Source: Verrucomicrobiia bacterium
GTDB taxonomy: Bacteria > Desulfobacterota > Binatia > UBA9968
Direction of reading: 5' to 3'
Assembly: GCA_035495775.1 (NCBI GenBank)
Contig: DATJFG010000133.1
Span: forward strand, 10,178 to 74,177
DNA length: 64,000 nt
Shown one piece after another: positions 1 through 25,012 of the stretch. Within the stretch, counting starts at the first letter, position 1. Each line of letters begins with the position of its first letter. The notes under the pieces were generated by a model that saw only the letters and a program-made list of their open reading frames with translations, made no database searches and was not told the origin of the DNA. A program made the translations under genes and the position numbers.

Positions 1-672
1 GCCGGCCCACTGCGCGCTGCGGACTTCCTCGAATTCGAGCTTCGTGATCGGGCGCGAATAGTAGGCGCCGCCCGGAAGCCCTTTCAATTCTGCGATATGC
101 GCGTGCAGCCACCGTGTATGGACCGGGTCAACGGAATTTTCCTGAGCATTGAGCCAATTGCAGTTCAAGACGGGATGCACGACGATTTTCCGCCGGCCGT
201 CTTGTCGCACCAGCACGTTCCACCGAGGAAGCAGCGGCGCGGGCGAAGGGCCCATGTAGGCGAAGAGGAGCCCGGCCAGCTTTTCGACGCGATACGCCTT
301 GTGCTTGGCGATCCTTCTCGCCTTGCTGTCGGGCAGTTCGTCGGGCTGTTCGAGGCAGCGGCCGCCGCTGTCGAAGAGGTAACCGTGGTAGGGGCAGCGG
401 ATGCCGCCGTCCTCGACAAAGCCGTAAGAAAGCGACGCGCCGCGATGCGGGCAGCGGTCGCCCAGAAGCCCGTAGTGTCCCTGGTCGTCGCGAAAAAGAA
501 TCAGGTCTTCGTCCAAAATTTTCAGCCGCTTCGATTTAGGTAGGCCGTATCGTCCAAGACCGTGAAGCTCGGCCGCGGGCGCAACCGGCTGCCAGTAGCG
601 ACGCAACAACTCGCCGACAGGCGTGCCCGCGCCGACGGAGGTCAACAGGATGTTTTCCTCGCGCGTCAGCAT
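1..672 (-). CDS. Rieske [2Fe-2S] non-heme iron oxygenase alpha subunit (phthalate/KshA-like class), 3' end runs off window start
   Basis: Reverse-strand translation from ATG at 672 gives MLTREENILLTSVGAGTPVGELLRRYWQPV...CPHRGASLSYGFVEDGGIRCPYHGY (CxH-X17-CxxH Rieske motif). It is absent from the ORF track because there is no stop inside the window; the frame stays open to position 1. Confidence 0.8.
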   Translation of the reverse strand, partial: MLTREENILLTSVGAGTPVGELLRRYWQPVAPAAELHGLGRYGLPKSKRLKILDEDLILFRDDQGHYGLLGDRCPHRGASLSYGFVEDGGIRCPYHGYLFDSGGRCLEQPDELPDSKARRIAKHKAYRVEKLAGLLFAYMGPSPAPLLPRWNVLVRQDGRRKIVVHPVLNCNWLNAQENSVDPVHTRWLHAHIAELKGLPGGAYYSRPITKLEFEEVRSAQWAG

Positions 673-698
673 GGCCTTGCCTCCGTTGCTCTTTCGCT

Positions 699-887
699 TC
701 AGCTGAGCCAGTCGGATACTTGTCCGGCGAGAATAACCGCGAGGATATGATCGCAATCTTCCAGCGCTCTGTCCGCTTCTTTCGCATCGTTCAGACGCGT
801 TATTCCATGGTTCACGGTCAAATGTAGCGCCTGGACGACCTGGAGTAGATACGTATCCAGCTCCTCGCCTCTCTTGAATTCGGACAT
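699..887 (-). CDS. hypothetical small protein (62 aa) between diiron and Rieske genes
   Basis: ORF with RBS-like GGAGAA upstream of ATG; position inside operon; no recognisable motif. Confidence 0.3.
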   Translation of the reverse strand: MSEFKRGEELDTYLLQVVQALHLTVNHGITRLNDAKEADRALEDCDHILAVILAGQVSDWLS

Positions 888-900
888 CGGTTCTCCGTGT

Positions 901-1617
901 TTAAAGATAATGACGCCCTTGGAGCGGATCGGGGACGCGAAGCCCCATCGACTCGATCAAGGGGTTCACCTCTTTGATATAGGCTTCGCGCGCCTGCTTG
1001 TTGGAGCGCCGTTTGAGGCCCCAGTAGACGTAGCGCTCCGAGTTCCTTGAATCGGAGTGGCCGAACATGTCGAGCGCCTTGATGTACCAGCGGTTGATCG
1101 CCTGCTGGACTTTTTCTTTCGATTCGCCGCCTCTCGCGGCGAGCTCGCGCGTCTGCGTCTCGCCGTAGTCGATATGGCCCAGCTCTTCCTGGATGATATC
1201 AGCCAACAGCGGCTCGATCGGCCGATAGCTGCAGCCGATAAACTCCTCCAGTTGGTAGCGGCCGATCCGGTCGATCAGGCAGCCGAAGACTGCGAAGTCT
1301 TCCCACGTTTGGATCGCGCCCCGGAACGTTTCCACATAGCGCTTTTGATTCGGCATGCTGAGCAGGAAGGAAACATCGAGGCCGATGTCGCCGGCGATGC
1401 GCGCGAACTTCCGGAAATGATCGATCTCTTCGGTCGCCGTGCGTGCGACGATCAACTGGTCGAGCCGCGTCGGCGCCGTCGGCAGCATCGATTCGACGTA
1501 GAGATGCGGCCCGCCGATCTCGCAGTCCGATTGGATCGTGAGCACTTTGCGCACGAGATCCTGATACTCCGGATCCATCTTCTCGAAATCCTTGGCTTCG
1601 ACTTTGTCTTTGAACAT
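901..1617 (-). CDS. ferritin-like diiron protein, PaaA/PaaC (phenylacetyl-CoA epoxidase) family-like
   Basis: Two E..ExxH diiron motifs (TATEEIDH, IQEELGHIDYG); ~240 aa. An ATG at 1617 with AAGGA RBS is preferred over the TTG at 1626. Confidence 0.6.
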   Translation of the reverse strand: MFKDKVEAKDFEKMDPEYQDLVRKVLTIQSDCEIGGPHLYVESMLPTAPTRLDQLIVARTATEEIDHFRKFARIAGDIGLDVSFLLSMPNQKRYVETFRGAIQTWEDFAVFGCLIDRIGRYQLEEFIGCSYRPIEPLLADIIQEELGHIDYGETQTRELAARGGESKEKVQQAINRWYIKALDMFGHSDSRNSERYVYWGLKRRSNKQAREAYIKEVNPLIESMGLRVPDPLQGRHYL

Positions 1618-1648
1618 CGTCGTCAATCCTTTTTACCCGCGGCGTTGT

Positions 1649-2440
1649 TTAATTGCCGGTGAAATTGGCCTTGCGCTTTTCCAAGAAGGCCGAGGTGCCT
1701 TCGCGGAGATCGTGGCTCGTCGCCAGATTCCCGAAGCAGCGCGCCTCGAGCTCGAGCCCCGCGGCCAGATCGACTTCCGGGCCCCGGTTCATGAGCATCT
1801 TCGAAGCCTCCAGCGCCAAACGCGGCAGCGCCGCGAGCTTGGCCGCGAAGTTATTCGCTTCTTCGAGCAGTTTACCTTTGGGCACGACTTTCATGACGAG
1901 CCCGGCGGCGAGCGCCTGCTCGGCGACAATCGGCTCTCCGGTTAGAATCATTTCCTTCGCTTTTGCGCTGCCGATAAGCCGCGGCAGCCGCTGCGTGCCG
2001 CCGCCGCCTGGAAACGCGCCGATCTTGATTTCCGGCAGGCCGAACTTGGTCCCCTCCGACGCGATGCGGAAATCGCAGGCGAGTGCCAGCTCGCATCCGC
2101 CGCCGAGCGCATAGCCGGCCACGGCGCCGATAACCGGCTGCGGCAGCGCCTCGATCTTGTCGAACAGAAGCTGAAACTCGCGGGCGTGGCGGTAGGTCGC
2201 CTCCGCCGTCGAAGCTTCCAGAATCTCGCCGATGTCGGCGCCGGCGCAGAAAAACTCCTCGCCGCCGGTGACGATCACCACGCGCTGCGAAGGATCGCCG
2301 GCAATCTCCTTGAGCGCGGCTTCCAATTCTTCGCGCAACCGGCCGTTGAAGGAATTTTTCTTTTCCGGCCGGTTGAGCCGAAGCGTCGTGATGCCGCCTT
2401 GTTTATCGACGAGCAGATGCTGAAACATAAACTCCTCCAA
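1649..2440 (-). CDS. enoyl-CoA hydratase/isomerase (crotonase family)
   Basis: Crotonase core motifs: FCAGADI, AVAGYALGGGCELALACDFRIA, GLPEIKIGAFPGGGGTQRLPRLIG; 263 aa. Confidence 0.85.
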   Translation of the reverse strand: MEEFMFQHLLVDKQGGITTLRLNRPEKKNSFNGRLREELEAALKEIAGDPSQRVVIVTGGEEFFCAGADIGEILEASTAEATYRHAREFQLLFDKIEALPQPVIGAVAGYALGGGCELALACDFRIASEGTKFGLPEIKIGAFPGGGGTQRLPRLIGSAKAKEMILTGEPIVAEQALAAGLVMKVVPKGKLLEEANNFAAKLAALPRLALEASKMLMNRGPEVDLAAGLELEARCFGNLATSHDLREGTSAFLEKRKANFTGN

Positions 2441-2449
2441 AAAAACAGA

Positions 2450-3301
2450 TCAAAGGCCGAAGAGCTGGACGGTATTGTCGTGCAAGACTTTTCGCTTCAC
2501 CTCGTCTTTGAGCCCGATCTGATCCATTTGATCGAGGCTCGCCTTCCAGGCAAGCCCGTTAGTGCCCCAGACGCATCGGTCCATGCCCATGCGGCTGTTC
2601 ATGAAGTGAAGGATTTCCGGTCCGAGATATTTCGGCAGCCAGCCGTCGATGCCGAAATAGATATTGTCCCATTTGTAGCAAGCGGAGATGAGCTCCGCCG
2701 CCCACGGCCAGCCCGTGTGCGCGCCGATCATTTTCAATTCCGGAAAGTCGCTCGCGATCTTGTCCAGGTAAATCGGCCGGCCGTGCTCGCTCGGCATCGC
2801 CTCGAGCACATGTCCCACCTGCATCGAAACCGGGATGTCGAGCTCGACGCACTTGGCGTAGAGCGGGTACATCTTGGCATCCGAGAGCGGGATGTCGAAG
2901 CCGTAAATATGGACATAGACGCCTTTAAAGCCGTACTGCTTGACGCCGATCTCGATCTCTTGCAGCGATTCTTTGATGCGGAAGGGGTTATAGCCGGCAA
3001 GTCCGACGAAGCGCTCCGGATAGCGCTTTGTGTACTGCGCGACCTCGTCGAGCGTCGTGTCCATGTACATCCAGTGATTGCGGTAGGACCACATCTTGGT
3101 CTGCGTGATGAAGACCTTCTCCACGCCGGCCTCGTCCATCTTGCCGATCATCGCCTCGATCGAATCGAACTGCGGCAGCCCGCCTATGGCGCGCTCCATG
3201 CGGCAGATGAGCTCGTTTTTTTTCGCGTCGTTCCACTTGGCGATAAACTCCGGTGTCGCCACGTAGTACATCATATCGATCGCTTTGAGGCCGTTCTGCA
3301 T
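2450..3301 (-). CDS. amidohydrolase-2 family (ACMSD/LigW-like metal-dependent hydrolase or decarboxylase)
   Basis: TIM-barrel amidohydrolase_2 signature regions (GFKGVYVH, MQVGH, AHTGWPW, DRCVWGTN); RBS AGGAGA. Confidence 0.75.
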   Translation of the reverse strand: MQNGLKAIDMMYYVATPEFIAKWNDAKKNELICRMERAIGGLPQFDSIEAMIGKMDEAGVEKVFITQTKMWSYRNHWMYMDTTLDEVAQYTKRYPERFVGLAGYNPFRIKESLQEIEIGVKQYGFKGVYVHIYGFDIPLSDAKMYPLYAKCVELDIPVSMQVGHVLEAMPSEHGRPIYLDKIASDFPELKMIGAHTGWPWAAELISACYKWDNIYFGIDGWLPKYLGPEILHFMNSRMGMDRCVWGTNGLAWKASLDQMDQIGLKDEVKRKVLHDNTVQLFGL

Positions 3302-3310
3302 GTTTTTCTC

Positions 3311-4075
3311 CTACGACATCGTGAGGCCGCCGCTGACGCTGATCGTCTGGCCGGTGACGAAATCGGAATCGCTGGAGGCCAGGAACACGACCATCGCGGC
3401 GATCTCCTCGGGCTTCGCGGCGCGGCGGAAAGGCGTCGCTTTGATCACGGCATCGACGATCTTGGCGGTTTTTTCCGATTGGTCCTTAATCGCCTGCATG
3501 AGCGGCGTGTCGGTCATGCCCGGGCAGATGACGTTCACATTGATATTGTATCGGGCGCTCTCCCGCGCGAGCGTCTTGGAAAACGCGATCACCGCGCCTT
3601 TTGCGCCCGAGTAAACCGCCTCCCAGCTCGAGCCCACGCGGCCGGCGTCCGAGGCGATGTTGATGATCTTGCCCGAGCCGTGCTGGATCATGTTCGGCAG
3701 CACGGCTTTCGCCGTCTGCAGGACCGATTTGAAATTGATCGACAAGACCTTGTCCCACGTCTCTTCCGTGCTCTCGAGAAACGGCTCCAGTCTGTCCCAG
3801 CCCGCGCAGTTGACCAGAATATCGATCTGGCCGAACTGGCCGAGAACCGTCTTAACCATCTGTTCGACGTCGGCGCGTTTGGTCAGATCGGTGCGGCAGG
3901 CGACGGCGGAGCCGAAACCCGAGTCTTTGATCTGGCTGCAGACCTTCTCGGCCTGCTCGACGGCGATATCGGCGATCGCGACATTGGCGCCTTCGAGTCC
4001 CAAGGCGATCGCTGTCGCGCGGCCGATGCCGCTTGCGCCTCCCGTGACGATGGCAGTCTTTCGTTTAAGCTTCAT
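3311..4075 (-). CDS. SDR family oxidoreductase (BadH-like 2-hydroxyacyl-CoA dehydrogenase candidate)
   Basis: TGGASGIGRA Rossmann motif, NCAG, YSGAKGA catalytic YxxxK; 254 aa; RBS GGAGGTG. Confidence 0.9.
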   Translation of the reverse strand: MKLKRKTAIVTGGASGIGRATAIALGLEGANVAIADIAVEQAEKVCSQIKDSGFGSAVACRTDLTKRADVEQMVKTVLGQFGQIDILVNCAGWDRLEPFLESTEETWDKVLSINFKSVLQTAKAVLPNMIQHGSGKIINIASDAGRVGSSWEAVYSGAKGAVIAFSKTLARESARYNINVNVICPGMTDTPLMQAIKDQSEKTAKIVDAVIKATPFRRAAKPEEIAAMVVFLASSDSDFVTGQTISVSGGLTMS

Positions 4076-4102
4076 GAAATCACCTCCACAGTGTTTGTTG
4101 AC

Positions 4103-4930
4103 TTAAGCTACTTGGGCTGCCGAGGCCGGCTCTTTCCCGCCTTCGCGGATCTTCTCCAGCCGCTTCAGCGCGAGCAGCGCGGCGCCGATCGCGCCGACCA
4201 TCTCCGGCTCGTCGCTCACGTTGACCTTCTTCTTGACCGTTTCCGATAGCGCTTTGACCATACCGTTTTGTCGTGCGACCCCCCCGACGAACGTCAGTTC
4301 TTCCTCGAGGCCGGCGCGCTTCAGAAGCGCGAGGGCGCGCGAGGCGAGCGAATTGTGCACGCCGCGGAGAATGTCTTCGACCGTTTCGCCTGAAGAGACG
4401 TGGTTGATGATCTCCGACTCCGCGAGCACGGCGCATACGCTGCTGATGGTCTGCGGCTTTTTCGCGTTAAGCGAGAGATCGCCGACCTGCTCGATGGCGA
4501 CCTCGAGGTACTTGGCGGCGCGCTCGATGAAGCCGCCGGCGCCCGCGGCGCACTTGTCATTGGTCCGAAACTCGAGCACCTTGCCCGCTTCGTTCACGCG
4601 CAGCGCGCGCGTGCTCTGCGCGCCGATGTCGAGGACGCACCGGGTCTTGGGGAAGAGAAACACCGATCCTCGCGCGACGCACGTAATGTCTGTGATCTGA
4701 ACATCGCGGAACGGCACGTTGTAACGGCCGAAGCCCGTTGTCGCGATATAGCCTAAATCGCTTTGCGCGATCCCCGCCTGCTTGAGCGCGATATCCAGGG
4801 CATCTTGGGCGATCACCGGGAAATCCGGCTTCGTCCGAATCGAGCTTTTTCCGCGGATGCGCCGCTCGCCGTCGAGCACGATAGCCTTGGTGAGCTTGGC
4901 GCCCATATCGATGCCGGCTACAAAAATCAT
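4103..4930 (-). CDS. BadF/BadG/BcrA/BcrD-type ATPase (CoA-enzyme activase, ASKHA fold), short form
   Basis: GIDMGAK...DIGAQSTRA...DKCAAGAGGF...FVGGVARQ motifs typical of HgdC/BcrD; RBS GAGGAGG. Confidence 0.85.
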   Translation of the reverse strand: MIFVAGIDMGAKLTKAIVLDGERRIRGKSSIRTKPDFPVIAQDALDIALKQAGIAQSDLGYIATTGFGRYNVPFRDVQITDITCVARGSVFLFPKTRCVLDIGAQSTRALRVNEAGKVLEFRTNDKCAAGAGGFIERAAKYLEVAIEQVGDLSLNAKKPQTISSVCAVLAESEIINHVSSGETVEDILRGVHNSLASRALALLKRAGLEEELTFVGGVARQNGMVKALSETVKKKVNVSDEPEMVGAIGAALLALKRLEKIREGGKEPASAAQVA

Positions 4931-4960
4931 GAGGCCTCCTCTTAGGCGACGGGCGAACGG

Positions 4961-5773
4961 CTAGGCCGTCGCCTGAGCCAATTCGCCCTTCGCCTTGACG
5001 GCGCGTTCGAGGGCGAAGATCGCCGCTCCGAGGGCGCCGACATAGTGTGAATCTGGGCTGACGTTTATCTTCATGCCGAGTTTTTCCTCCAGCGCGCTCA
5101 CCATGCCGATATTGCGCGAGACGCCGCCGGTGAATGTCACCTCCGGCTCGATGCCGACCCGGCGTATGAGAGAGACCGTGCGCGCGGCGATGGCGCTGTG
5201 GACGCCGCCGAGGATGTCCTCGACCTTTTTATTTTGCGCTAGATAGGACATGATGTCCGATTCGACGAAAACCGTGCACACGGTGGTGAGGCGCACGGGA
5301 TTCTTCGCCTTCAGCGCAATCGGTCCGATGTCGTCGAGATTCAAAAGCAGCGCCTCGGCCGCGCTGCCGAGGAATCGTCCCGTGCCCGCCGCGCATTTAT
5401 CGTTCATAACGAAGTCTTTGACATCGCCGTCCGGGCCGACGCGTATGCCTTTGGCGTCCTGTCCCCCCATGTCGATGACCGTCTTGGTGTTCGGGAATAG
5501 ATAACACGCGCCGCGCGCGTGGCAGCTGATCTCGGTGATCTGCGCGTCGCCGAAGGTTACTTTGTAGCGGCCGTAGCCGGTGCCGACGATGTAGGCGACG
5601 TCTTCGCGCGGCACGTTGGAGACTTTGAGCAATTCTTTGAAGCAGTTGTCGCCCGCGCGCGTCACGTTGGCGCCCGTCATGATGAGAGCACGCGCGACGA
5701 TGTTGCGGTTCTCGTCGAGGATAATGCCTTTGGTTTGCGTCGAGCCGACGTCGATTCCCGCGCTGTACATCAT
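4961..5773 (-). CDS. BadF/BadG/BcrA/BcrD-type ATPase, second distinct subunit
   Basis: [11 protein letters not shown]...[10 protein letters not shown]...[11 protein letters not shown]...FTGGVSRN. The true start is at the MMYSAG doublet (AGGAGGTG RBS); the track ORF has an Arg-rich spurious extension. ATGA overlap with the upstream gene. Confidence 0.85.
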
Positions 5774-7065
5774 GCGGCACCTCCTGCGGCGGCTTTCGCC
5801 TCGCGAACGATTTTCTTGTGCTCCAACGACTCGAAAAATGCGTCGATGCGGTTTTTGATCTGCGCTTCCGAAAAGTAGCGCGGGTCTTCGATGTCGGACT
5901 CGATGAGCAGCGTCGGCACATTGAGGTCTTTCGTGAAGTACTCGCGCATGTCGCCCTGCCCTGCGGAGAAAAGCCGGCAGCTCTTCACGGAATGGATGAC
6001 GAGCGCGTCGGCGTTCCATTCTTCAATGTAGCGGCGGATTTGCGCATAGCGCTGGAGGAAGTTTCGATTCGTGACGTTCCATTCGAGCATGTGCTCGGCG
6101 ATCGATTCGAGCGGCCGGTTCGGGTCGTGCTTGAAGCCGAACTCCCAGAGGCCGCCGACGGTCGAATAGGTAGAGGCGACGGCCACCGCGCCCCACTTCG
6201 AGAAGAGATCGCGGAAGGTCCGCAAAAAGGGCCACGGCGGAGGACCTTCGATGACGAAGCGGAAACGCTCCTCGGGCAGCGGCCCCTGACCCATTTCCAC
6301 TTTTTCTTCCATCTCTTTGAGAGCGGTCTGGAAAAATTTAAGCCCGTCTTCGGTGCCGCGAAGACAATAGAGCGGCGCCATCATCGTCACGGAGTCGAAG
6401 TAGGCGTCGAACGGCGTCGGCCTATGTTTGGTGAGCGACTTCACCTTCGACCACAGCTCGCCGGTCTCGGCCGAGAACTCGACGATTCTCTTGAGCTTGG
6501 CCCAGTCGAGATCTTTGCCGGTGATCCGCTCCATGGCGACTATCACCTCTTCGAGCTGCTTGACGACGTATTCGATATCCGCCTTCGAAGGTTTGCCGGA
6601 CGGGTCGCGCAGAAACGGGATGTCGAGATTATAAATCTCGCCGTCGCAGTATTCCGCCAGATGCTCGAACCACTGGAGATAGACATTGCAGCCGACGTAG
6701 TTACAGAGAATTAAAGACGGCAGCGGGATCGTCGCAAAAGGGGTCTTGCGGTCGCCGAGAAAAAGACCGACGTCGGCCTTCACATAGGCGCAGTTGTCCA
6801 TGGAATAGCCGATCTCCTCGGCCTTCTGAATGAACGGCAGCGCGGCTTTTTTGACCGCGAGCTGCAGCGCGTTGATCTCGGGATACACCGGCACCATGTC
6901 GAAGGCCTGAACGAGCTCGACGGGATTGCCGCTGATCAGCATGTAAACGGCTTTGCCGTCGCCTTGCTCGGCGGCCCGCGTGACGCGGGCGAAGTAGCGC
7001 CCCATCATATCCTTCTGGAGCAGGTGCATCTGGCCCTGGTAAATGCTCTTTGCCGATTCAGCCAT
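5770..7065 (-). CDS. 2-hydroxyacyl-CoA dehydratase/benzoyl-CoA reductase BcrB/BadE/HgdA-like subunit
   Basis: 431 aa; HgdAB/BcrBC-family fold inferred from size, conserved Cys pattern and operon context with two activase ATPases; RBS AGGAGG. Confidence 0.75.
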
Positions 7066-7073
7066 TGTTCCTC

Positions 7074-8228
7074 CTAATCGAACAGCATGGATTCCACGAA
7101 CGTTTCGACCTCGGTTCTCGACTTGTCAAAAATCCACATCTTTTCTTCGAATTCGAGGTAAAGATGAGGAATCCCTGCTTTCTCCAGAGCCTGACGATAG
7201 AGGGCATAGTCAAACAAGGCGGGCTCGCAAAACTTCGCCGCGAGGATCACGACGGCTGCCGCGCCGGTTTCTTTGACTTTGTCGATGAGGTGTTTCGATT
7301 TCCGCTCGCGAGTGTCGTGCTTCACGCCCGAGTAGACGCTCCGTCTCAGATAGCTTTCGGCGAGGTTCCGCACAGGATCGCCGTCGGTCGGAATATCTTC
7401 GGTGAAGAAGCGCCAGCCGGTCAGGAAATCGTCGTCCAGGATGTAACAGCCGGCGGCTTCGAGCCCTTCGATCAATTCGAGCGGCGGCTGCTCGCAGAAG
7501 GAGCCTTCGAGCACGACTTTGATGCGGTCCTTTGGCCTCTCGTCCCGCAGTCGAATGGCAGCCAGGGCTTCCTTGAGAATGGAGATATGCTCTTCGGGGG
7601 GCATCAGTGTCGCGATTCGCGTAAGCACGTAAGTCTCGACCGTGGAGAGGTTCTGCGGCTGTGTCGCGCGGAGCGCGTAAAGGTCGCGCAGCAGCTTTCG
7701 CTGTTCGTTGTAGATTCGCGTGCTGCGTCTGAGAGCCTCGTCGTCGGGTTTGATGCCGGAAAGCTCCGTATAGCTCTCCAGTAGCCGATGATACTCCGCC
7801 GTGAGATAATCGACGGTGGCCGGCGAAGTCATATTCTGCGGAAAGTGGATATATTCGACCATGAGTTTCGGAAAGTTCCGTTTGTAAACGCTGGCCAGGT
7901 TTCGCGCGGGGTCGCAGATCGAATGGAAGACGATGCCGTCGAGGAATCCGATGCGGTCGGTCATCGCGAGTTCGAGTGTGCTTTTGACGATCGAGCAGAC
8001 GAACGATTGAAAGCGCGAATCGGCATGGGCGATCTCCAGTCGGTTGCCGCCGCCGAGGATACCCACCGGCAACATCCCGGCTGCATGAATCAGTTCGACG
8101 GGCGAATAGACGGGATAGCAGCCGACGGCTTTTGTCGTGGGATGGCTCGCCTTCCAGCGCGCGACCCGCTCAAGCGGCGCCTCTTCCAAGGCCTCTCTAT
8201 ACTCGGCGATTACGTTGTCTATGTTCAT
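7074..8228 (-). CDS. 2-hydroxyacyl-CoA dehydratase/benzoyl-CoA reductase BcrC/BadD/HgdB-like subunit
   Basis: 384 aa, first gene of operon, same family as downstream gene; size matches BcrC/BzdN/BadD. Confidence 0.75.
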   Translation of the reverse strand: MNIDNVIAEYREALEEAPLERVARWKASHPTTKAVGCYPVYSPVELIHAAGMLPVGILGGGNRLEIAHADSRFQSFVCSIVKSTLELAMTDRIGFLDGIVFHSICDPARNLASVYKRNFPKLMVEYIHFPQNMTSPATVDYLTAEYHRLLESYTELSGIKPDDEALRRSTRIYNEQRKLLRDLYALRATQPQNLSTVETYVLTRIATLMPPEEHISILKEALAAIRLRDERPKDRIKVVLEGSFCEQPPLELIEGLEAAGCYILDDDFLTGWRFFTEDIPTDGDPVRNLAESYLRRSVYSGVKHDTRERKSKHLIDKVKETGAAAVVILAAKFCEPALFDYALYRQALEKAGIPHLYLEFEEKMWIFDKSRTEVETFVESMLFD

Positions 8229-8280
8229 CGGTGCCTCATATCTGAACGGTCATTCGTTCTGTTCTCCTAATGCTGAAGCG

Positions 8281-8296
8281 AGCAATCCATATGCCA
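8281..8296 (-). promoter_or_regulatory. sigma54 (-24/-12) promoter, TGGCAT-atgga-TTGCT, for the reductase operon
   Basis: Plus strand reads AGCAATCCATATGCCA; reverse complement is TGGCATATGGATTGCT with exact GG/GC spacing; 53 nt upstream of start at 8228. Confidence 0.65.
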
Positions 8297-8520
8297 GCGA
8301 ATTTCTGCCAGTGATTCAGTTAATTGCAAGTATTTGTGTCGTTCGGTTTTCTCAAAATAAAGAAGAAACGAAGGGATATTCTCAATCGTGCGACTGCTGG
8401 ATTGCGACACATCACTCGTCGGTTTTCCGTCGCTTTAGCGCTGGGTTCTACCGATATGCCGGTTTTATTTGAAAATGGAGCGCCGACGGATTATAAATGC
8501 GCGAAAGGGGTTACTTATCC

Positions 8521-9018
8521 ATGGAGTCCGATTTCGAACCACTCGAGGCCTTTTCTGAGGTCGAACGGTTAGTCGGAAAGGTGTATTTCCGATTTTCCCA
8601 TCTTTTCATGGGCCGGCCGGATCTCAGAGATTTCTGGTGGGAAATGGCGCGCCAGGAAGAGCAGCACGGACTCATTCTACTTGCATGCAAACTCATCATT
8701 CAGAATTATGAAGATGAGGAGGTCGATCCGAGTCTCGGCCGCGAGAACGCACGGCGATTGAAAGAGCACGTGCAAAGTTATTTAAGCGAAGGAACGCCGG
8801 CGATCAGCGTCAACGAAGCGTTCAAAATCGCGCTTGACATCGAGACCTCCGAGATCGACGCGATTTACGGCAAGCTGTTACAGTTGGGAGGCCCCAAGGT
8901 CGCTCAGACACTAGAGAACCTAGGCGTGCCGGCGAGCGTGCAGCGACAAAAACTCAAAGGCGCGATTCGTCAGTTTTGCAACGATCCCAACCTAATCGCC
9001 GCGGCGGAGCAGCTATAA
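8521..9018 (+). CDS. hypothetical ferritin-like 4-helix protein (ExxH motifs), possible partner of the adjacent sigma54 activator
   Basis: EMARQEEQHG and LDIETSEIDAIYG motifs; paralog of 18782-19276 product (IILHDEERHHGLL / LILDSEKHERLLG). Start uncertain (8497 or 8521). Confidence 0.5.
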   Translation: MESDFEPLEAFSEVERLVGKVYFRFSHLFMGRPDLRDFWWEMARQEEQHGLILLACKLIIQNYEDEEVDPSLGRENARRLKEHVQSYLSEGTPAISVNEAFKIALDIETSEIDAIYGKLLQLGGPKVAQTLENLGVPASVQRQKLKGAIRQFCNDPNLIAAAEQL

Positions 9019-9023
9019 GACGA

Positions 9024-9974
9024 ATGGATTCCATGCAGAGCGGCTTCGAACATATCATCGGTAAGAGCAGAGTTCTGCTCAACTTGCTGGACATGGTGAC
9101 CAAGGTCGCGCCGACTGCGGCGACGGTCTTGATCTCCGGAGAAAGCGGCACCGGCAAGGAGCTTATCGCGCGCTCCATTCATTCGCTGAGCGACCGGCGC
9201 GACAAGCTCTTTTTACCGGTGAACTGCGGCGCATTGCCGGAGACATTGTTGGAGAGCCTTCTCTTCGGTCACATGAAGGGTTCTTTCACCGGCGCGTTCG
9301 CCAACCAAGAGGGGCTTTTTGAGAAAGCCCGCGGCGGCACGATTTTCTTAGATGAGATCGGCGAAATCCCGCAGCACCTCCAGGTGAAGCTGCTGCGCGC
9401 CCTCGAAGCGAAGGAGATCCTGCCGATCGGCAGCACGAGCCCGCGGCGCACCGATGTGCGAGTGGTCGCAGCGACGAACCGGGATTTGAAAAAGGAGACC
9501 GTCGAGGGACGGTTTCGCGACGATCTATACTACCGACTTAACATCATGGAGCTTCATATCCCGCCGCTGCGCGAACGGCCCGAGGATATTCCGCTTCTCA
9601 TCGAGCATCTGGTTCGCAGGCACAATCCCGAACTGAAAAAAAACTTCAGGGGCGCCGAGCCGGAGGTGATCCGCATGCTCGCCACTCTCGAATGGAAGGG
9701 CAATGTGCGCGAGCTCGACAATGTGATCGAGCACACGATGATCCTCGCCGATGGCGAATGGATCAAAATGGAACATGTGCCGGCGAGCCTCAAGAATCAG
9801 GAAACGGTCACCCCCTTTATTTTGAACCTCAAAGAAGCGACGAGACAATTCGAAAAACAGCACATCGTCCATGTCCTCGAGCAGGCGGGACAAGACCGCA
9901 AAGAGGCCGCGCGCTTGCTCGATATCAGTCTCTCTTCGCTGTATCGTAAGCTCGAAGAGCTGGGAATCGATTGA
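9024..9974 (+). CDS. sigma54-dependent transcriptional activator (bEBP) lacking N-terminal regulatory domain (PspF/HrpS-like architecture)
   Basis: Starts directly in AAA+ domain: Walker A GESGTGKE, GSFTGA (GAFTGA) motif, Walker B/R-finger, C-terminal Fis-type HTH; ~317 aa. Confidence 0.85.
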   Translation: MDSMQSGFEHIIGKSRVLLNLLDMVTKVAPTAATVLISGESGTGKELIARSIHSLSDRRDKLFLPVNCGALPETLLESLLFGHMKGSFTGAFANQEGLFEKARGGTIFLDEIGEIPQHLQVKLLRALEAKEILPIGSTSPRRTDVRVVAATNRDLKKETVEGRFRDDLYYRLNIMELHIPPLRERPEDIPLLIEHLVRRHNPELKKNFRGAEPEVIRMLATLEWKGNVRELDNVIEHTMILADGEWIKMEHVPASLKNQETVTPFILNLKEATRQFEKQHIVHVLEQAGQDRKEAARLLDISLSSLYRKLEELGID

Positions 9975-10073
9975 TTCCGGTTCTGAAGACATTTACCCGC
10001 GTCTTTTCCCGAAGTTGAGAAACGAGCTGCGATTTTCTTCAGCGTAAACAGCGTTCTTCGCGCGCTAAATCCC

Positions 10074-10089
10074 TGGCATCCTTATTGCT
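10074..10089 (+). promoter_or_regulatory. sigma54 promoter TGGCAT-cctta-TTGCT
   Basis: Exact -24 GG / -12 GC spacing; just upstream of the kinase-fusion gene. Confidence 0.6.
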
Positions 10090-10111
10090 CGGCGTATGCT
10101 GTGGAGCAGTC

Positions 10112-11749
10112 ATGGAACCCGAGTCGCTCATGTTGCCGTCGCCGCGTGCTGATCAGGAATCATTGGTGCAGGCGATGCTCGACCCGGCCTTTTACCCGCG
10201 TCGGCCATCGACGGTAAACTATCGCGAAACTCACATCTCGCACCTATTCTTCGCGGGAGACCTCGTCTACAAGGTCAAAAAAGACGTACGGTATTCGTTT
10301 GTCGATTACTCGAACTTAGAGCGGCGGCTGTTTTTCCTCCAGGAGGAACTCCGGCTCAATCGCCGTCTCGCGCCATCGGTGTATCTCGGCATCCTGCCGA
10401 TCTCTCACGACGACTACGGCTGGCAGCTGGGCAGTGATGCCCAACTAGCGGAATACGCCCTGGTTATGCGACGACTACCCGAACGGCGCATGCTCGATCA
10501 TCTCCTCGACACCGGCCAGGCGACGCCGTCGATGATGGACGCAGTGGCGGAAACACTCGCGCCGTTTCACGCAGCGGCGCCGAACGGCCGCAAGGTGCGG
10601 CCCTTCGGCGATCCAGCGAGGATCCGCTCGGTATGGACGGAGAACCTCTCCGATCTCGATCCTTTCATCGGACGCACCGTTGACGCCGGAACGCTCGCGG
10701 CGATTCGAGCATTCGGCGACAGTTTCCTGGCCGAGCATTCAGAACTGATGCAGCGCCGCGCGCTCGCCGGCTACACGCGCGAGGTTCACGGCGATCTTCA
10801 TTGCGAACATATCTGTTTCGCCCCCGAAGGCATCCAGATTTACGACTGCGTCGAGTTCAGCCGCCGCTTTAGATTCATCGACGTCGCGTCCGAGGTCGCC
10901 TTTCTCTCGATGGACCTCCAGGCGCGCGGGGCTCGCGAACACGCTCAGCGCTTTATCAATCGGTATGTCGAGCTGACGAACGACGCCGACCTGGCGAAGC
11001 TTCTGCCGTTTTATGAATGTTATCGGGCGCTCGTCAGGGCGAAGGTATTCACGCTCATCTTTCGCGACCGCGCCGAGGCGGCGTCGCGCTATTTCGATCA
11101 GGCGTACAGTTATACCTGGCAGGCGCTGAAGCCTTTCGTGGTGATGATCGCCGGCTTGACCGGCAGCGGGAAATCCACTCTAGCGCGCGCGCTCGCGCGA
11201 CGGCTCGGCGCGACTGTGATCAACTCCGATGTCACGCGTAAACGCCTTGCGGGCGCCTCCGATCGGCACGATCAGCTTAAGTACGGCGAAGGGCTCTATA
11301 GCCCGGCGATGACGGCGCGCGCCTATCGCAAGATGATGGAAGAAGCGGATAATTGTCTCGCCGCCGGCCGCAGCGTGATTCTCGACGCCACGTTTCATAA
11401 AGCGGCGCAGCGCGATCCGTCTTTGGAGATCGCCGAGCGCCGCGGTGCGTCCATAGCGCTCATCGAATGCCATGCGCGTGACGATCTCATCCGTGAGCGG
11501 CTCGCCGCCCGCGCCGAGGCCAGACGCGATCCTTCTGACGGAAATTGGCAAATTTACTTGAAACAAAAAGAGCTCTTCGAACCGTTTACGCTAAACCCTA
11601 ATCGCCTGCGGCTCGATACGGAGCTGTCGCTTGCGCAGCTCACGAACAAGTCCGAAGAGTTTCTCAGGGCCGCGCTGGCAAAGCCGGCGAATAAGACGGC
11701 CTATCCCATTCGAATTGCCGCCTCGAATCTGCTATCAGAAACCCGATGA
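10112..11749 (+). CDS. bifunctional phosphotransferase (APH/choline-kinase-like) + P-loop AAA_33-type kinase fusion
   Basis: N-terminal half has HGDLHCEHI catalytic loop and DxxE region of phosphotransferase family; C-terminal half has Walker A GLTGSGKST. ATG at 10112 (GGAG RBS) preferred over the TTG at 10085, which lies inside the promoter. Confidence 0.7.
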   Translation: MEPESLMLPSPRADQESLVQAMLDPAFYPRRPSTVNYRETHISHLFFAGDLVYKVKKDVRYSFVDYSNLERRLFFLQEELRLNRRLAPSVYLGILPISHDDYGWQLGSDAQLAEYALVMRRLPERRMLDHLLDTGQATPSMMDAVAETLAPFHAAAPNGRKVRPFGDPARIRSVWTENLSDLDPFIGRTVDAGTLAAIRAFGDSFLAEHSELMQRRALAGYTREVHGDLHCEHICFAPEGIQIYDCVEFSRRFRFIDVASEVAFLSMDLQARGAREHAQRFINRYVELTNDADLAKLLPFYECYRALVRAKVFTLIFRDRAEAASRYFDQAYSYTWQALKPFVVMIAGLTGSGKSTLARALARRLGATVINSDVTRKRLAGASDRHDQLKYGEGLYSPAMTARAYRKMMEEADNCLAAGRSVILDATFHKAAQRDPSLEIAERRGASIALIECHARDDLIRERLAARAEARRDPSDGNWQIYLKQKELFEPFTLNPNRLRLDTELSLAQLTNKSEEFLRAALAKPANKTAYPIRIAASNLLSETR

Positions 11750-12921
11750 GGGAAGTCGTTATCTTGAGCGCCGTGCGGACGCCGATCGGCGGCCTCAACG
11801 GATCGCTGTCTGCATTGCCGGCGCCGGCGCTCGGCAGCGTCGCGATCCGCGAGGCGCTCGCTCAGGCTCGGATCGGCGCCGAGCGCGTCGACGCCGTCAT
11901 CATGGGCAATGTCATCTCCGCGGGCGTCGGACAGGCACCGGCGCGCCAGGCGGCGCTCAAAGCCGGCCTTCCAAATACGGTCAGTTGCACGACGATCAAC
12001 AAGGTCTGCGGTTCGGGTCTCAATGCGGCGATGATCGCCGCGCAAGCGATCCGCACCGGAGACGCGGAAGTCATCGTGGCGGGCGGTATGGAGAGCATGA
12101 GCAACGCGCCCTATCTCCTCGACCGCGCACGCGCCGGCTATCGCATGGGCCACGCGACAGTTCTCGACAGTCTGATCAGAGACGGTCTGTGGGATGCCGT
12201 CGGCGATTTTCATATGGGCGTGGCGGCGGAGAAGTGCGCCGAGCGCTTCGGCATCTCGCGCGCCGATCAGGATGAATTCGCGGCGACAAGTTATCGCCGC
12301 GCGCACGCGGCGCAGATTAGCGGCGCGTTCAAGCACGAAATCGTTCCCGTGCTGACCGTTCAAAAGAACGGCTCCACGCCTGTAGCCGAAGATGAATCGG
12401 TGAAACGCTTCGATGCCGAGAAGATGCGCGCGCTAAAGCCGGCCTTTAAGTCCGACGGAACGGTTACGGCGGGGAACTCCTCTTCGATCAGCGACGGCGC
12501 CGCAGCCGTCGTCTTGATGACGCGCGAGAAGGCCGATGCGTTGGGCCTCAAACCCATCGCGCGGGTGATCGGCTCGGCGTCCGCGGCGCGCGCGCCTGAA
12601 TGGTTCACGATCGCGCCGGCCGACGTTATACCGAGGCTACTCGATCGCTGCGGCTACTCATTGAGCGACATTCACCTCTTCGAGATCAATGAGGCCTTTG
12701 CGGCCGCATCGATCGCCGTCAACCGCCTGCTCCATCTCGATCCGGAAAAGGTCAACGTGCGCGGCGGCGCCGTCGCCCTGGGCCATCCGATCGGCGCCAG
12801 CGGCGCGCGCATCTTGACGACGTTGACGCATGCGCTGGTCGACCTCGATAAAGAGCGCGGCGTGGCCGCGCTTTGCATCGGCGGGGGTGAAGCGGTGGCG
12901 ATGATGGTCGAGCGGCTTTAA
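11746..12921 (+). CDS. acetyl-CoA C-acyltransferase (thiolase II family)
   Basis: N-terminal VIVSAVRTPIGG-like block, active-site NKVCGSG, C-terminal GGGEAVAM; 391 aa; ATGA overlap with upstream gene. Confidence 0.9.
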   Translation: MREVVILSAVRTPIGGLNGSLSALPAPALGSVAIREALAQARIGAERVDAVIMGNVISAGVGQAPARQAALKAGLPNTVSCTTINKVCGSGLNAAMIAAQAIRTGDAEVIVAGGMESMSNAPYLLDRARAGYRMGHATVLDSLIRDGLWDAVGDFHMGVAAEKCAERFGISRADQDEFAATSYRRAHAAQISGAFKHEIVPVLTVQKNGSTPVAEDESVKRFDAEKMRALKPAFKSDGTVTAGNSSSISDGAAAVVLMTREKADALGLKPIARVIGSASAARAPEWFTIAPADVIPRLLDRCGYSLSDIHLFEINEAFAAASIAVNRLLHLDPEKVNVRGGAVALGHPIGASGARILTTLTHALVDLDKERGVAALCIGGGEAVAMMVERL

Positions 12922-12934
12922 TCCACTTTACGCT

Positions 12935-14386
12935 TCAGCGATCGATCTGATCCGCCGTGGCGCTATAGGTCTCGAATTTCGCGCGCACGTAAGGCGAGCT
13001 GTAGCCGTTTCGAATGCGCTCGATGCGCTCGGGCCGGCTGAAGAACTCCCGGTTGATCTCCGCCGACAGCGCTCCGAGCTCCTGCCGTGAGAGATGGCGC
13101 GTCGGCATGACGGTGTGAATCGCATCCCAATTTTTCAGATCGATGTTCTCGACGCGCTCACCCGTGAGCGCTTGGCGCCAGACCGGCGATCCGGGCATCG
13201 GCGTCAGGAGCATGAGAACGCCGATATCCGGGTCGATGTCGTCGACGGCGCGAAAACGCTGCCGAATCTTCGTCGCATCGTCCTCCCAGAAACCGCTCAT
13301 GTAGGTGCCGACTGTCGAGATGTCGTTTCGCCTGAGGAGTCGCACGAGCTCTCTTAAATCTCCGATCGTATAGCGATCTTTGCTTTTATGCAGGTTGACC
13401 AGCTCCTCGTCGCTGCCGACTTCGATGCCGAATAAGACCTGATAGCAGCCGGCGCGCCGCATGCGCGGAATCAAGTCGGCGTCGCGAAGCAGGTTGCGCG
13501 CTCGTCCCATGAAGAACCATTGCATATCGATGCGGCGCTTCTCGATCTCATCCAAGAGATCGACGATTTTTTGCCGGTCGGAGTTGAAATCGTCGTCCAT
13601 GAAGTTGAGCGCCTTCACGCCGTAGGTCTTGCTCAGCAACTCCATTTCATCGGCGACGAGCTTTCCGCTGCGCGTGCGGTGAACGAAAAAATCCTGCCGT
13701 CGGCGAAAATCTACCAGGCCCCACTCGTAGCAGAAGCTGCAGGCTCCTTCGCAGCCGCGGCTCGTCACCGCCTCGTTATATCCTGCGATCCGGGAAAAGC
13801 CGATGTATTTATCCATCGGGAAGAGATCATACGCCGGCATGGGCAACTCGTTCAGATCGATGATGAGCGGCCGCGGCGCGGTGAAGCGGATTTCGGATTG
13901 TTCCCGATAGGCGAGGCCGAGAACATCTTTGAGATTTGGTTGCGCCGATTTGAGCTGCTCCAAAAGCTCGGCGAGCGTCCGGTCGGCCTCTCCGATCACG
14001 ATGTAATCCAGCTGCGGAGCGAGACCGAGAATGTCTTTCGGCATGGACGAAAGCGCAAGGCCGCCGGAGATCGTGACGATACTGGGAAACGCTTGCTTGA
14101 CGGTCTCGAGGGCTTCCAAATAGCGCATCACCGAACCTGCGCCGCCTTCGGTCACGACCCGGGTGCCGACGAAGATCGCGTCGGGCGCGCTCTTTCTGAT
14201 GCTCTCGATCATCGCCTCTTCATCGAGGCCGAGAGCGCGGCAGTCGAGGACTTCGACCTGCGCAACCTTTTGCGTGCGAACGTACGCCGCCAAGTGTGCG
14301 TAGAGGGCATTACAGGCGACGTGGCGCGCGCCCCAGCGCTTCCAATTAGCCATCGGCGGCGTAAGGAAAAGTAGCTTCATATTCAC
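12935..14386 (-). CDS. B12-binding domain radical SAM protein (class B radical SAM)
   Basis: N-terminal cobalamin-binding Rossmann-like domain followed by CEGACSFC (CxxxCxxC) radical SAM cluster motif; 483 aa. Confidence 0.85.
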   Translation of the reverse strand: MNMKLLFLTPPMANWKRWGARHVACNALYAHLAAYVRTQKVAQVEVLDCRALGLDEEAMIESIRKSAPDAIFVGTRVVTEGGAGSVMRYLEALETVKQAFPSIVTISGGLALSSMPKDILGLAPQLDYIVIGEADRTLAELLEQLKSAQPNLKDVLGLAYREQSEIRFTAPRPLIIDLNELPMPAYDLFPMDKYIGFSRIAGYNEAVTSRGCEGACSFCYEWGLVDFRRRQDFFVHRTRSGKLVADEMELLSKTYGVKALNFMDDDFNSDRQKIVDLLDEIEKRRIDMQWFFMGRARNLLRDADLIPRMRRAGCYQVLFGIEVGSDEELVNLHKSKDRYTIGDLRELVRLLRRNDISTVGTYMSGFWEDDATKIRQRFRAVDDIDPDIGVLMLLTPMPGSPVWRQALTGERVENIDLKNWDAIHTVMPTRHLSRQELGALSAEINREFFSRPERIERIRNGYSSPYVRAKFETYSATADQIDR

Positions 14387-14427
14387 CCCGGGACTGTTTG
14401 GGACATGAAATGTTTAGGTGTCAACTA

Positions 14428-14443
14428 AGCAACTGCTATGCCA
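14428..14443 (-). promoter_or_regulatory. sigma54 promoter TGGCAT-agcag-TTGCT for B12-radical SAM gene
   Basis: Plus strand AGCAACTGCTATGCCA; reverse complement has exact consensus spacing; 42 nt upstream of start at 14386. Confidence 0.6.
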
Positions 14444-14590
14444 CCGTAAACAGCCGATACGGGGCATATTAAAGGGAAATTACGTAACAAATTTCTGTCG
14501 ATAAGAAACAGATAGGAAACTTTTCCCAAATTAAGGAAGTGGGTAAATCATCCGTCTAAGACTTAGCACGATGGCGGGGTAGCGCTCTTG

Positions 14591-14643: not shown

Positions 14644-14650
14644 TGAGTTC

Positions 14651-15670: not shown

Positions 15671-15696
15671 TCGATCCTCCTCCTGATGACTTATTG

Positions 15697-25002: not shown

Positions 25003-25012
25003 GGAAATACCG

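Follow-up and report, generated by a model that had tools for sequence, protein, structure and literature searches.

To our knowledge, class-I benzoyl-CoA reductases are known biochemically from just a handful of cultured Proteobacteria. The described systems closest to the one considered here are BcrCBAD of Thauera aromatica and BadDEFG of Rhodopseudomonas palustris, the 3-methylbenzoyl-CoA reductase MbdONQP of Aromatoleum/Azoarcus sp. CIB (PDB 9g87 and 9gai), and the Azoarcus-type enzyme BzdNOPQ (PDB 8s02). Here we analyze a long operon from a 64,000-nucleotide (nt) stretch of contig DATJFG010000133.1 (positions 10,178 to 74,177, assembly GCA_035495775.1), which comes from an uncultured soil bacterium, is labelled Verrucomicrobiia bacterium and is placed by GTDB in the class Binatia. 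The whole stretch is called the window below. The operon occupies the minus strand from position 8228 to the window edge. We estimate a probability of about 0.7 that it is a class-I aryl-CoA reductase operon with Bad-like ring-degradation and lower modules, in which the oxygenase genes are lineage-variable passengers. Judged by sequence comparison, the enzyme belongs to a class that is already known, and the locus is best described as an uncharacterized and widely distributed branch of that class within a complete but non-canonical degradation operon.

Gene calls were typed by Pfam and NCBIfam profiles and by sequence matches to the PDB. The predicted reductase is encoded by the four genes nearest to the promoter:

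7074..8228, minus strand: gamma subunit (BcrC/BadD/MbdN-like), 384 amino acids (aa); Pfam HGD-D, 3.5e-76
5770..7065, minus strand: beta active-site subunit (BcrB/BadE/MbdO-like), 431 aa; Pfam HGD-D, 9e-67
4961..5773, minus strand: alpha ATPase (MbdQ-like, compact), 270 aa; BcrAD_BadFG, 7.7e-69; 4-nt overlap with the beta gene
4103..4930, minus strand: delta ATPase (BcrD/MbdP-like), 275 aa; BcrAD_BadFG, 1e-57

Two HGD-D subunits and two different BcrAD_BadFG ATPases are encoded together, which is the subunit criterion of class I. The solved enzyme MbdONQP, with the same four-subunit make-up, is the top PDB match for all four proteins, before HadBC/HadI and BzdNO. In particular, gamma matches MbdN (2.9e-85), HadC (9.6e-56) and BzdN (1.2e-31), and beta matches MbdO (2.6e-72), HadB (1.5e-51) and BzdO (2.4e-28). 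The best PDB match of alpha is MbdQ (2e-111), and delta matches MbdQ (4e-71) and MbdP (1e-60). According to NCBIfam, the best families for gamma, beta and delta are those of BcrCBAD/BadDEFG, and the C-B-A-D gene order is shared with these systems as well. The order gamma-beta-alpha-delta and the downstream genes distinguish the window operon from MbdONQP.

The two catalytic subunits and the two ATPases resemble different described systems. The match of the BcrA model TIGR02259 to alpha is split (positions 231-432), and the extra segment of about 165 aa that is present in BcrA/BadF is absent from alpha (270 aa against 432 model positions). MbdQ (269 aa) and MbdP (273 aa) are equally compact, so the two short ATPases, which the initial annotation of this DNA had taken for a departure from known layouts, already have a precedent. 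Because alpha lacks the long segment of BcrA/BadF and the Mbd ATPases are just as compact, the clade therefore appears to combine Bcr/Bad-like catalytic subunits with Mbd-like ATPases.

Cysteines expected to bind iron-sulfur clusters occur in all four subunits. In BzdNOPQ, the active-site cysteines and glutamate of BzdO, a His131/Glu65 pair, and six BzdN cysteines holding an [8Fe-9S] double cubane cluster have been described (PMC11971306). Cys92, Cys126, Cys363 and Glu63 of the window beta subunit are conserved and align with the residues of the BzdO active-site cluster; the glutamate is conserved, and BzdO His131 is not, being replaced by Val/Tyr. Cys78, Cys105 and Cys334 of gamma correspond to cluster cysteines in the alignment. 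At the positions of BzdN Cys263 and Cys293, gamma has a Phe and another non-Cys residue, and MbdN lacks both cysteines too. Because these two cysteines are absent, a double cubane is not expected in gamma. Thus BzdNOPQ shares the enzyme class and the three cysteines plus glutamate, and it differs in BzdO His131, in BzdN Cys263/Cys293 and in its low identity (see below). TIGR03190 and TIGR03191 give just 121 and 100 bits. Alpha and delta each carry Cys127 and Cys166, which we take to be the cluster ligand positions of HgdC.

The homologues of beta were collected in an exhaustive search of 1.84 billion cluster representatives. A neighbour-joining tree with 100 bootstraps was built from 70 full-length representatives of 50%-identity clusters, nine members of the window clade, and MbdO, HadB and BzdO. 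The sequences of MbdO, MbdN, HadB and BzdO were rebuilt from PDB alignments, with a few terminal residues missing; the canonical Bcr/Bad representatives were picked by their TIGR02260 score (P0131, 815 bits; P0128, 630 bits). The window clade is monophyletic in all 100 bootstraps. The window clade, the TIGR02260-equivalog group and MbdO cluster together in 100/100, and HadB stays outside with 55 dehydratase-like representatives. Grouping with the HgdAB/Fld dehydratases had been named beforehand as the result that would contradict a reductase; the four-subunit, ATP-dependent reductase of the class-I benzoyl-CoA reductase type proposed in the initial annotation is upheld by this tree, which excludes the dehydratases. 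Within the reductase cluster the clade branches, with lower support (71/100), with Bcr/Bad and not with Mbd.

The window beta subunit is 39.5% identical to the canonical BcrB/BadE representative, 36% to MbdO, 29% to HadB and 23% to BzdO, while MbdO itself is 35% identical to the canonical BcrB/BadE representative. From the tree and these pairwise identities (39.5/36/35%), the clade thus appears to be a third deep lineage of Thauera-type class-I aryl-CoA reductases. One beta homologue with 46% identity (P0124) comes from a metagenome-assembled genome (MAG) of 'Candidatus Kariarchaeaceae archaeon', which suggests that the wider reductase cluster extends into Archaea.

Relatives of beta with 67-90% identity were found in 140 GTDB species representatives, and the loci of the best 80 of these 140 species were fetched for neighbourhood comparison. 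The carriers belong to Binatia, Acidobacteriota, Methylomirabilia (Methylomirabilota), Chloroflexota, Eremiobacterota/Vulcanimicrobiota and Dormibacterota; many of the Binatia carriers are still labelled 'Deltaproteobacteria bacterium RIFCSP...'. Among the GTDB species representatives, the window beta is nearest (90%) to MAGs of the Binatia type. Protein databases contain thousands of further homologues, named 'benzoyl-CoA reductase subunit B' or '2-hydroxyacyl-CoA dehydratase family protein'. An abundance of benzoyl-CoA pathway genes in Binatota and Acidobacteriota has been reported from automatic annotation (preprint 10.1101/2025.11.25.690425). Wherever the contig is long enough, all of these 80 species-level loci show the order gamma-beta-alpha-delta.

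The four reductase genes are followed by six further genes within the window and are preceded by a promoter element and a divergent pair of regulatory genes:

3311..4075, minus strand: SDR1, a BadH-like short-chain dehydrogenase/reductase (SDR), 254 aa; adh_short, 1e-62
2450..3301, minus strand: non-canonical Amidohydro_2 TIM-barrel protein, 283 aa; PF04909, 1.5e-30
1649..2428, minus strand: ECH1, a crotonase/enoyl-CoA hydratase (ECH), 259 aa; ECH_1, 1.6e-73
901..1617, minus strand: PaaA-like diiron protein of the ferritin fold, 238 aa; PaaA_PaaC PF05138, 1.3e-22
699..887, minus strand: 62-aa open reading frame (ORF), the usual partner of the PaaA-like gene and conserved next to it
1..672, minus strand, cut by the window edge: alpha subunit of a Rieske oxygenase, first 224 of 389 aa; Rieske, 3.8e-17
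8281..8296, minus strand: sigma54 -24/-12 box TGGCATATGGATTGCT, 53 nt upstream of the gamma ATG
8521..9974, plus strand: divergent regulator pair, a 165-aa ORF and a sensor-less sigma54 enhancer-binding protein; Sigma54_activat, HTH_8

The ten genes in 1-8228 are tightly packed, with intergenic distances from -4 to 31 nt, and all ten have an ATG start and a GGAG-type ribosome-binding site. No terminator-like hairpin was found in any intergenic gap, and a sigma70-like promoter is absent within the operon except for one weak match in the Rieske coding sequence. This is, as far as gene layout can tell, a real, tightly packed and long sigma54-dependent catabolic operon, of which the window holds the promoter-proximal part. 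The gene inventory of the initial annotation (gamma and beta, two ATPases, SDR, amidohydrolase, crotonase, PaaA-like and Rieske genes) was recovered in full by Pfam. Its order needs a correction, since the crotonase does not precede the amidohydrolase (the real order is SDR, amidohydrolase, crotonase), and the 62-aa ORF at 887-699 had been overlooked in an apparent 225-bp gap between the PaaA-like and Rieske genes.

The operon runs on past the window edge, as seen from contigs of the same lineage (those with an identical PaaA-like protein) and from relatives with a 96%-identical beta. The genes beyond the edge are SDR2, ECH2, a GNAT gene, two acyl-CoA dehydrogenases (ACAD1 and ACAD2) and a carboxyltransferase. 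The same succession is characteristic of Binatia-type loci: among the 24 with enough sequence, SDR1 follows delta in all 24 and the amidohydrolase is present in 20, and then come ECH1 and the module SDR2-ECH2-GNAT-ACAD1-ACAD2. In several relatives an isocitrate-lyase-family protein of about 820 aa (KVCGH motif; Pfam ICL in L095) is encoded between the amidohydrolase and ECH1 (L013, 14761-17265; L048, 14757-17219; L049, 14789-17260; L095, 4686-7148). This insert is absent from the window.

A BadH-like dehydrogenase downstream of the reductase, proposed from the sequence at the outset, agrees with the profile matches: the best of 234 NCBIfam matches of SDR1 is TIGR03206 (2-hydroxycyclohexanecarboxyl-CoA dehydrogenase, BadH), with 286.8 bits against a cut-off of 431. 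If SDR1 is indeed of the BadH type, its position after the reductase genes would be shared with the Bcr/Bad systems. ECH1 matches generic enoyl-CoA hydratase models alone, none of them past its cut-off, and ECH2 passes only the generic model PRK08258. At the far end of the operon, the ACAD2 ortholog of locus L001 passes the cut-off of the Desulfococcus-type non-decarboxylating glutaryl-CoA dehydrogenase (484.8 vs 470), and an mmdA-like carboxyltransferase gene comes next after it. In anaerobes, the benzoyl-CoA pathway ends with the conversion of glutaryl-CoA through glutaconyl-CoA to crotonyl-CoA. The functions predicted for ACAD2 and the carboxyltransferase would fit this end of the pathway. 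A thiolase (11746-12921, divergent) and a two-subunit 2-oxoacid:ferredoxin oxidoreductase (OFOR, 21369-25002) lie behind sigma54 boxes of the same type as the reductase operon. The OFOR gene pair is followed by a gene for a VIT1 iron transporter (21369-25822, plus strand).

Two other kinds of neighbours were found in relatives. GNAT and Rrf2 genes lie immediately upstream of the four reductase genes, on the same strand, in 16 Acidobacteriota-type loci. A BadL/BadM arrangement of this kind controls badDEFGAB in R. palustris (PMC6191541). One of the loci with GNAT and Rrf2 genes also encodes a molybdenum enzyme whose best family is the alpha subunit of 4-hydroxybenzoyl-CoA reductase (Hcr-like, 812 bits; next family 522). 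The BadL/BadM-like, Hcr-like and glutaryl-CoA dehydrogenase neighbours may be read as circumstantial, mutually independent pointers to chemistry of the benzoyl-CoA type. The distance of the GNAT and Rrf2 genes from gamma is about 0.55-1.3 kb (16 loci among L054-L079), and a 4HBT thioesterase gene is often located downstream.

The amidohydrolase is strongly conserved. Its family includes about 2,400 homologues, nearly all of 283 aa among those listed, with a mean column identity of 82% across phyla; D9, M11, Y13, H131, H164, H195 and N248 are invariant. There was no NCBIfam match. The homologue searches for the amidohydrolase and for the PaaA-like protein were saturated by relatives with at least 70% identity and gave no link to a characterized enzyme. 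An AlphaFold2 (AF2) model of the amidohydrolase is a TIM barrel with a mean predicted local distance difference test score (pLDDT) of 83. Its Foldseek neighbours, with template modelling (TM) scores of about 0.7, are BB4693, LigW, gamma-RSD, LigJ and LigY, i.e., first the uncharacterized BB4693, then hydroxybenzoate/carboxyvanillate decarboxylases, the LigJ hydratase and the LigY C-C hydrolase. A role as a substitute ring-cleaving hydrolase is a guess from its conservation and from the lack of any other candidate. A second Amidohydro_2 protein of 452 aa is encoded at 61986-63344 (minus strand), beside ABC-transporter and NMT1-like genes.

Under the preferred reading, the gamma, beta, alpha and delta subunits would assemble into a heterotetramer that hydrolyses ATP and acts as a class-I aryl-CoA reductase of the Thauera/Bad/Mbd type. 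Between alpha and delta, Cys127 and Cys166 of both subunits would together bind one [4Fe-4S] cluster. Reduced ferredoxin is the presumed electron source, with the OFOR at 21.4-25.0 kb as its likely supplier. Driven by ATP hydrolysis, electrons of very low potential would pass through the gamma cluster to the [4Fe-4S] cluster of beta (Cys92, Cys126, Cys363, with Glu63 nearby), and reduction of benzoyl-CoA, or of a close analogue, at this site would give a cyclic dienoyl- or enoyl-CoA. The product could then be hydrated by ECH1 and oxidized by the BadH-like SDR1, and the ring may be opened by the conserved non-canonical amidohydrolase. ACAD1, ECH2, SDR2 and the divergent thiolase would perform one round of beta-oxidation of a C7 dicarboxyl-CoA, and ACAD2 with the carboxyltransferase would act on glutaryl-CoA, so that the route would end at crotonyl- or acetyl-CoA. 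The oxygenases at the joint of the modules might use up O2 or, in its presence, prepare substituted aromatics for the pathway. The number of genes, we infer, matches a Bad-like route.

The two oxygenase genes require separate consideration. The PaaA-like protein shares the ferritin-like fold and the six diiron ligands with the PaaABCE and BoxB epoxidases, and E. coli PaaA is its best characterized match (PDB, 3.7e-17). The ligands E33, E63/E64, H67, D116, E144/E145 and H148 do not vary among the 20 family members compared. About 2,000 proteins belong to the family, and those listed all have 238-240 aa, while PaaA has about 310 aa. Despite the intact ligands, the protein does not qualify as PaaA: it scores 90 bits on TIGR02156 (cut-off 280), and no partner genes for PaaB, PaaC, PaaD or PaaE were found in the window operon, L001 or L008. 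Instead it is paired with the 62-aa ORF, which has no Pfam or NCBIfam match and adjoins the PaaA-like gene in L001, L008, L093, L094 and L096 (61% identical in the L001 lineage, 39% in L093). This two-gene unit occurs in different settings, including non-aromatic ones: in the window operon, in an aerobic-type cluster (L093), by a multicopper oxidase gene (L094) and by genes of electron-transfer flavoprotein (ETF; L096).

The window covers the Rieske domain and only the start of the catalytic domain of the second oxygenase, with the motifs CPHRG...CPYHGY and DPVHTRWLH visible. The full-length gene is available in L008; its product has a LigXa_C domain (2.5e-10), and the best PDB match is the phthalate 4,5-dioxygenase alpha subunit 7fhr (6.5e-45). 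The protein is thus predicted to be a complete oxygenase of the phthalate-dioxygenase/LigXa family. It shares the CxH...CxxH and D-x2-H-x4-H motifs and the LigXa_C domain with the homotrimeric phthalate 4,5-dioxygenase/LigXa/VanA enzymes, and it differs from them in having no reductase partner nearby, in its location inside the operon of an O2-labile reductase and in being a variable insert. A role in electron transfer with the diiron protein was also considered and rejected, since the Rieske protein has the full length of an oxygenase, including a catalytic domain.

Comparison with relatives demonstrates how variable this part of the operon is. In the L001 relatives (beta 96% identical, DNA about 85%), the DNA is collinear with the window lineage to the end of the 62-aa ORF, a segment of 1.34 kb with the Rieske gene is unmatched, and collinearity resumes in SDR2; the Rieske gene is a clean single-gene indel. 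In at least 12 Binatia-type species ECH1 is followed straight by SDR2 or ECH2, with neither oxygenase gene between them. In L048 the PaaA-like gene is followed by a 25-codon remnant of a Rieske N-terminus, MLTQEQNERLTRVGPGTLAGELLRR, at 18831-18910. Because this remnant lies directly after the PaaA-like gene, it indicates that the L048 lineage probably lost a Rieske gene. The metagenomic contig L095, with a full operon, has a Rieske paralogue directly after the PaaA-like gene (46% identical to the window Rieske protein; the PaaA-like proteins are 74% identical).

In L093, an aerobic-type cluster is joined to the SDR2-ECH2-GNAT-glutaryl-CoA dehydrogenase-carboxyltransferase module of the reductase operon. 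The L093 module is orthologous to that of the window operon (SDR 64%, ECH 78%, GNAT 70%, glutaryl-CoA dehydrogenase 80%). Because of the indel, the L048 and L095 variants and the lower module shared with L093, the oxygenase genes can be placed at the joint of the reductive upper module and the lower module. They had been described as members of the reductase transcript. This is right as far as co-operonic location is concerned, since there is no room for a promoter or terminator, and wrong if they are regarded as an integral part, in view of the indel and of the at least 12 species without them. The oxygenases are, by this comparison, probably accessory and interchangeable, although co-operonic here. 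They may trim substituted aromatics with O2, scavenge O2, or be carried over by recombination. The L093 cluster (2938-20717) also encodes a 375-aa PaaA-like protein, three LigXa-type Rieske proteins, LigB, a cupin, a 392-aa amidohydrolase and a four-gene cytochrome c oxidase.

A number of observations weigh against the preferred reading. Gamma reaches only 344.5 bits on TIGR02263 (cut-off 421) and beta only 318 bits on TIGR02260 (cut-off 486). The ATPases also stay under the cut-offs of the NCBIfam equivalogs TIGR02259-02263 (alpha, 203 bits vs 578; delta, 186 bits on TIGR02261 vs 313). On the same models as beta and gamma, the validated MbdO and MbdN score 220 and 229 bits, lower than the window proteins; because they miss the TIGR02260/02263 cut-offs too, such scores place a protein outside the Bcr/Bad subgroup and say nothing against membership of the enzyme class. 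Beta is only 36-40% identical to characterized reductases, and the sister position of the window clade to the TIGR02260-equivalog group has a bootstrap of just 71/100 in a neighbour-joining tree with a small reference set, in which no Thauera BcrB, BadE or MbrB was identified by name. The carriers among the best 80 of 140 species are all MAGs, and a literature search returned no biochemical work on any clade member.

The set of pathway genes has gaps as well. The operon differs from the Bad system in lacking a BadI-type hydrolase, the BadA ligase and the BadB ferredoxin; the 64-kb window encodes neither an aryl-CoA ligase nor a stand-alone ferredoxin (CxxCxxCxxxCP), and the top NCBIfam matches of ECH1 and ECH2 include no model of the BadI, Oah or Dch type. 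The amidohydrolase family departs from the canonical Amidohydro_2 set (HxH in strand 1, His in strands 5/6, Asp in strand 8). It retains H131, H164 and H195, but it has no HxH motif and no invariant His before H131, and its invariant Asn248 is aligned with the catalytic metal-binding beta-8 Asp of LigW (BB4693 has Ala there). The replacement of the usual ring-cleaving hydrolase by this protein, as suggested in the initial annotation, therefore keeps in its favour the conservation of the gene and the lack of another candidate, and has against it the loss of HxH and of the beta-8 Asp.

One alternative is that the four-subunit enzyme does not dearomatize at all, being an ATP-dependent alicyclic dienoyl-/enoyl-CoA reductase or a 2-hydroxyacyl-CoA dehydratase with a heterodimeric activator. 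The scores under the equivalog cut-offs would agree with this. The HadBC/HadI and HgdAB/HgdC dehydratases share the superfamily and fold and are the second-best PDB matches; gamma and beta keep the three-cysteine pattern of HadBC, and only K96 and F411 were found as residues telling reductases from dehydratases, two weak candidates. K96/F411 was dropped as a reductase diagnostic for being too weak. However, the dehydratase HadB lies outside the cluster formed by the clade with Bcr/Bad and Mbd in 100/100 bootstraps. Known dehydratases use one homodimeric activator, and HgdC and HadI appear as single-chain PDB matches of the window ATPases, whereas the operon contains two distinct ATPase genes in every locus. 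An aromatic substrate is also favoured by the BadL/BadM-like and Hcr-like neighbours, and we consider a non-dearomatizing enzyme very improbable. A reductase specific for ring-substituted aryl-CoA, i.e., methyl-, hydroxy- or methoxy-benzoyl-CoA (for example, lignin-derived), with the Rieske, diiron and amidohydrolase proteins trimming the substituents in a hybrid oxic/anoxic pathway, is a more serious possibility, though still an unlikely one. In its favour, the best solved relative is a 3-methylbenzoyl-CoA reductase, and the clade and Mbd lie equally far from canonical Bcr/Bad (35-40% identity). The Rieske protein is a member of the LigXa/VanA/phthalate family, the amidohydrolase resembles hydroxybenzoate/carboxyvanillate decarboxylases in its modelled structure, and the carriers live in soil and groundwater. 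Against it, most relatives lack the oxygenases while their reductase stays 80-96% identical, the amidohydrolase is without HxH and carries Asn in place of the catalytic Asp of LigW, and the PaaA-like/62-aa pair also lies by multicopper oxidase and ETF genes, far from aromatic genes. A substituted or hydroxylated aryl-CoA substrate, or a hybrid pathway, had been called plausible initially; as circumstantial evidence, the BadL/BadM-like, Hcr-like and glutaryl-CoA dehydrogenase neighbours point at least as well to benzoyl-CoA itself.

It is also conceivable that the PaaA-like/62-aa pair, perhaps with the Rieske protein, is co-expressed as a guard that scavenges O2 and so protects the O2-labile reductase in microoxic soil, rather than catalysing steps of the catabolic route. 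In favour of this are the invariant diiron ligands, the absence of PaaB, PaaC, PaaD and PaaE partners, the tight packing of the genes in the operon, and the recurrence of the pair by O2-sensitive systems (benzoyl-CoA reductase operons of the window, L095 and L048; OFOR and NiFe hydrogenase in L094). This argument comes from neighbourhood alone, however. Neither enzyme has a gene in the vicinity for a reductase partner that would allow its turnover, the pair is lacking in most reductase operons of the clade, and the L096 context (ETF and fatty-acid synthesis genes) has nothing to protect, which makes a guard function distinctly unlikely. The boldest reading joins two statements: that the amidohydrolase, despite its loss of the canonical metal-binding and catalytic residues, is a new ring-opening C-C hydrolase replacing BadI/Oah in a third lineage of reductase pathways widespread among uncultured soil phyla, and that some Binatia co-transcribe this O2-labile pathway with diiron and Rieske enzymes in order to run it under fluctuating or micro-oxic conditions, as a built-in oxic/anoxic hybrid. 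We regard it as doubtful that both hold together. A link of the UbiD-family protein encoded in the window (see below) and the Rieske protein with phthaloyl-CoA metabolism was considered and not adopted: the UbiD match is generic, and the gene is absent from the loci of the 96%-identical relatives.

Should the reductase of this clade act on benzoyl-CoA or lignin-derived analogues, much of the O2-independent ring breakdown in soils and aquifers may use an unassayed lineage. The clade is present in at least 140 species-level genomes, all of them uncultured, and in thousands of metagenomic homologues, and it is accompanied by a ring-processing set without a classical ring-cleaving hydrolase. The mosaic joint would be a concrete case of soil bacteria recombining oxic and anoxic aromatic modules. 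One shared lower module would be attached to either a reductive or an oxygenase module, with oxygenase genes sometimes inside the reductase operon.

The control of the operon was analyzed by a strict sigma54 motif search. Five matches were obtained on both strands of the 64-kb window, and four of the five directly front operons of the cluster; these four boxes begin at 8296, 10074, 14443 and 19766. The -24/-12 form GG-N10-GC is present at a suitable distance from gamma, and an enhancer-binding protein is encoded nearby, at 8976-9974, with Sigma54_activat and HTH_8 domains and without an N-terminal sensor domain. Of the 33 loci with a gamma that is at least 73% identical, 20 have a box of the same form 55-81 nt ahead of the gamma gene; its spacer sequence varies between these 20 loci. 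Such a box was found upstream of gamma in none of the 40 Acidobacteriota- or Eremiobacterota-type loci. Because of this distribution, sigma54 control appears supported at the sequence level and lineage-specific. The sigma54-driven transcription assumed from the start thus has its box in place, at a position kept in 20 of the 33 loci.

The regulator pair (the 165-aa ORF and the activator) is kept beside the operon in L001, L004, L006, L007 and L048. The 165-aa ORF (8521-9018, plus strand) has no family match and always precedes the sensor-less activator in Binatia relatives; it may represent the absent sensor or a partner of the sigma54 activator. Its AF2 single-sequence model has a pLDDT of 47, too poor to use. 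The four boxes (8281-8296, minus strand; 10074-10089, plus; 14428-14443, minus; 19766-19781, plus) are near-identical, TGGCAT-N5-TTGCT, and each stands before an operon. A TTGAGAA/TTGGGAA-like motif is located about 60-75 nt upstream of each. The four boxes look like one regulon of the sensor-less activator encoded at 8976-9974.

Several other gene groups of the window should be mentioned. The plus-strand genes at 10085-12921, with a sigma54 box of their own, encode a 554-aa fusion of an APH-type phosphotransferase and an AAA_33/zeta-toxin-type kinase and then the thiolase; this pair is kept beside the reductase operon in close relatives. The minus-strand operon at 12935-18331, also with a sigma54 box, includes a B12-binding radical-SAM enzyme, two NMT1-type binding proteins and a 550-aa UbiD-family (de)carboxylase, the latter matching a generic family model only. 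Farther away, at 33251-46412 on the plus strand, are genes for an MtrB/PioB-type outer-membrane porin, several multihaem cytochromes, a Rieske/cytochrome b complex and a cytochrome b561 fusion, which together look like an extracellular electron-transfer module.

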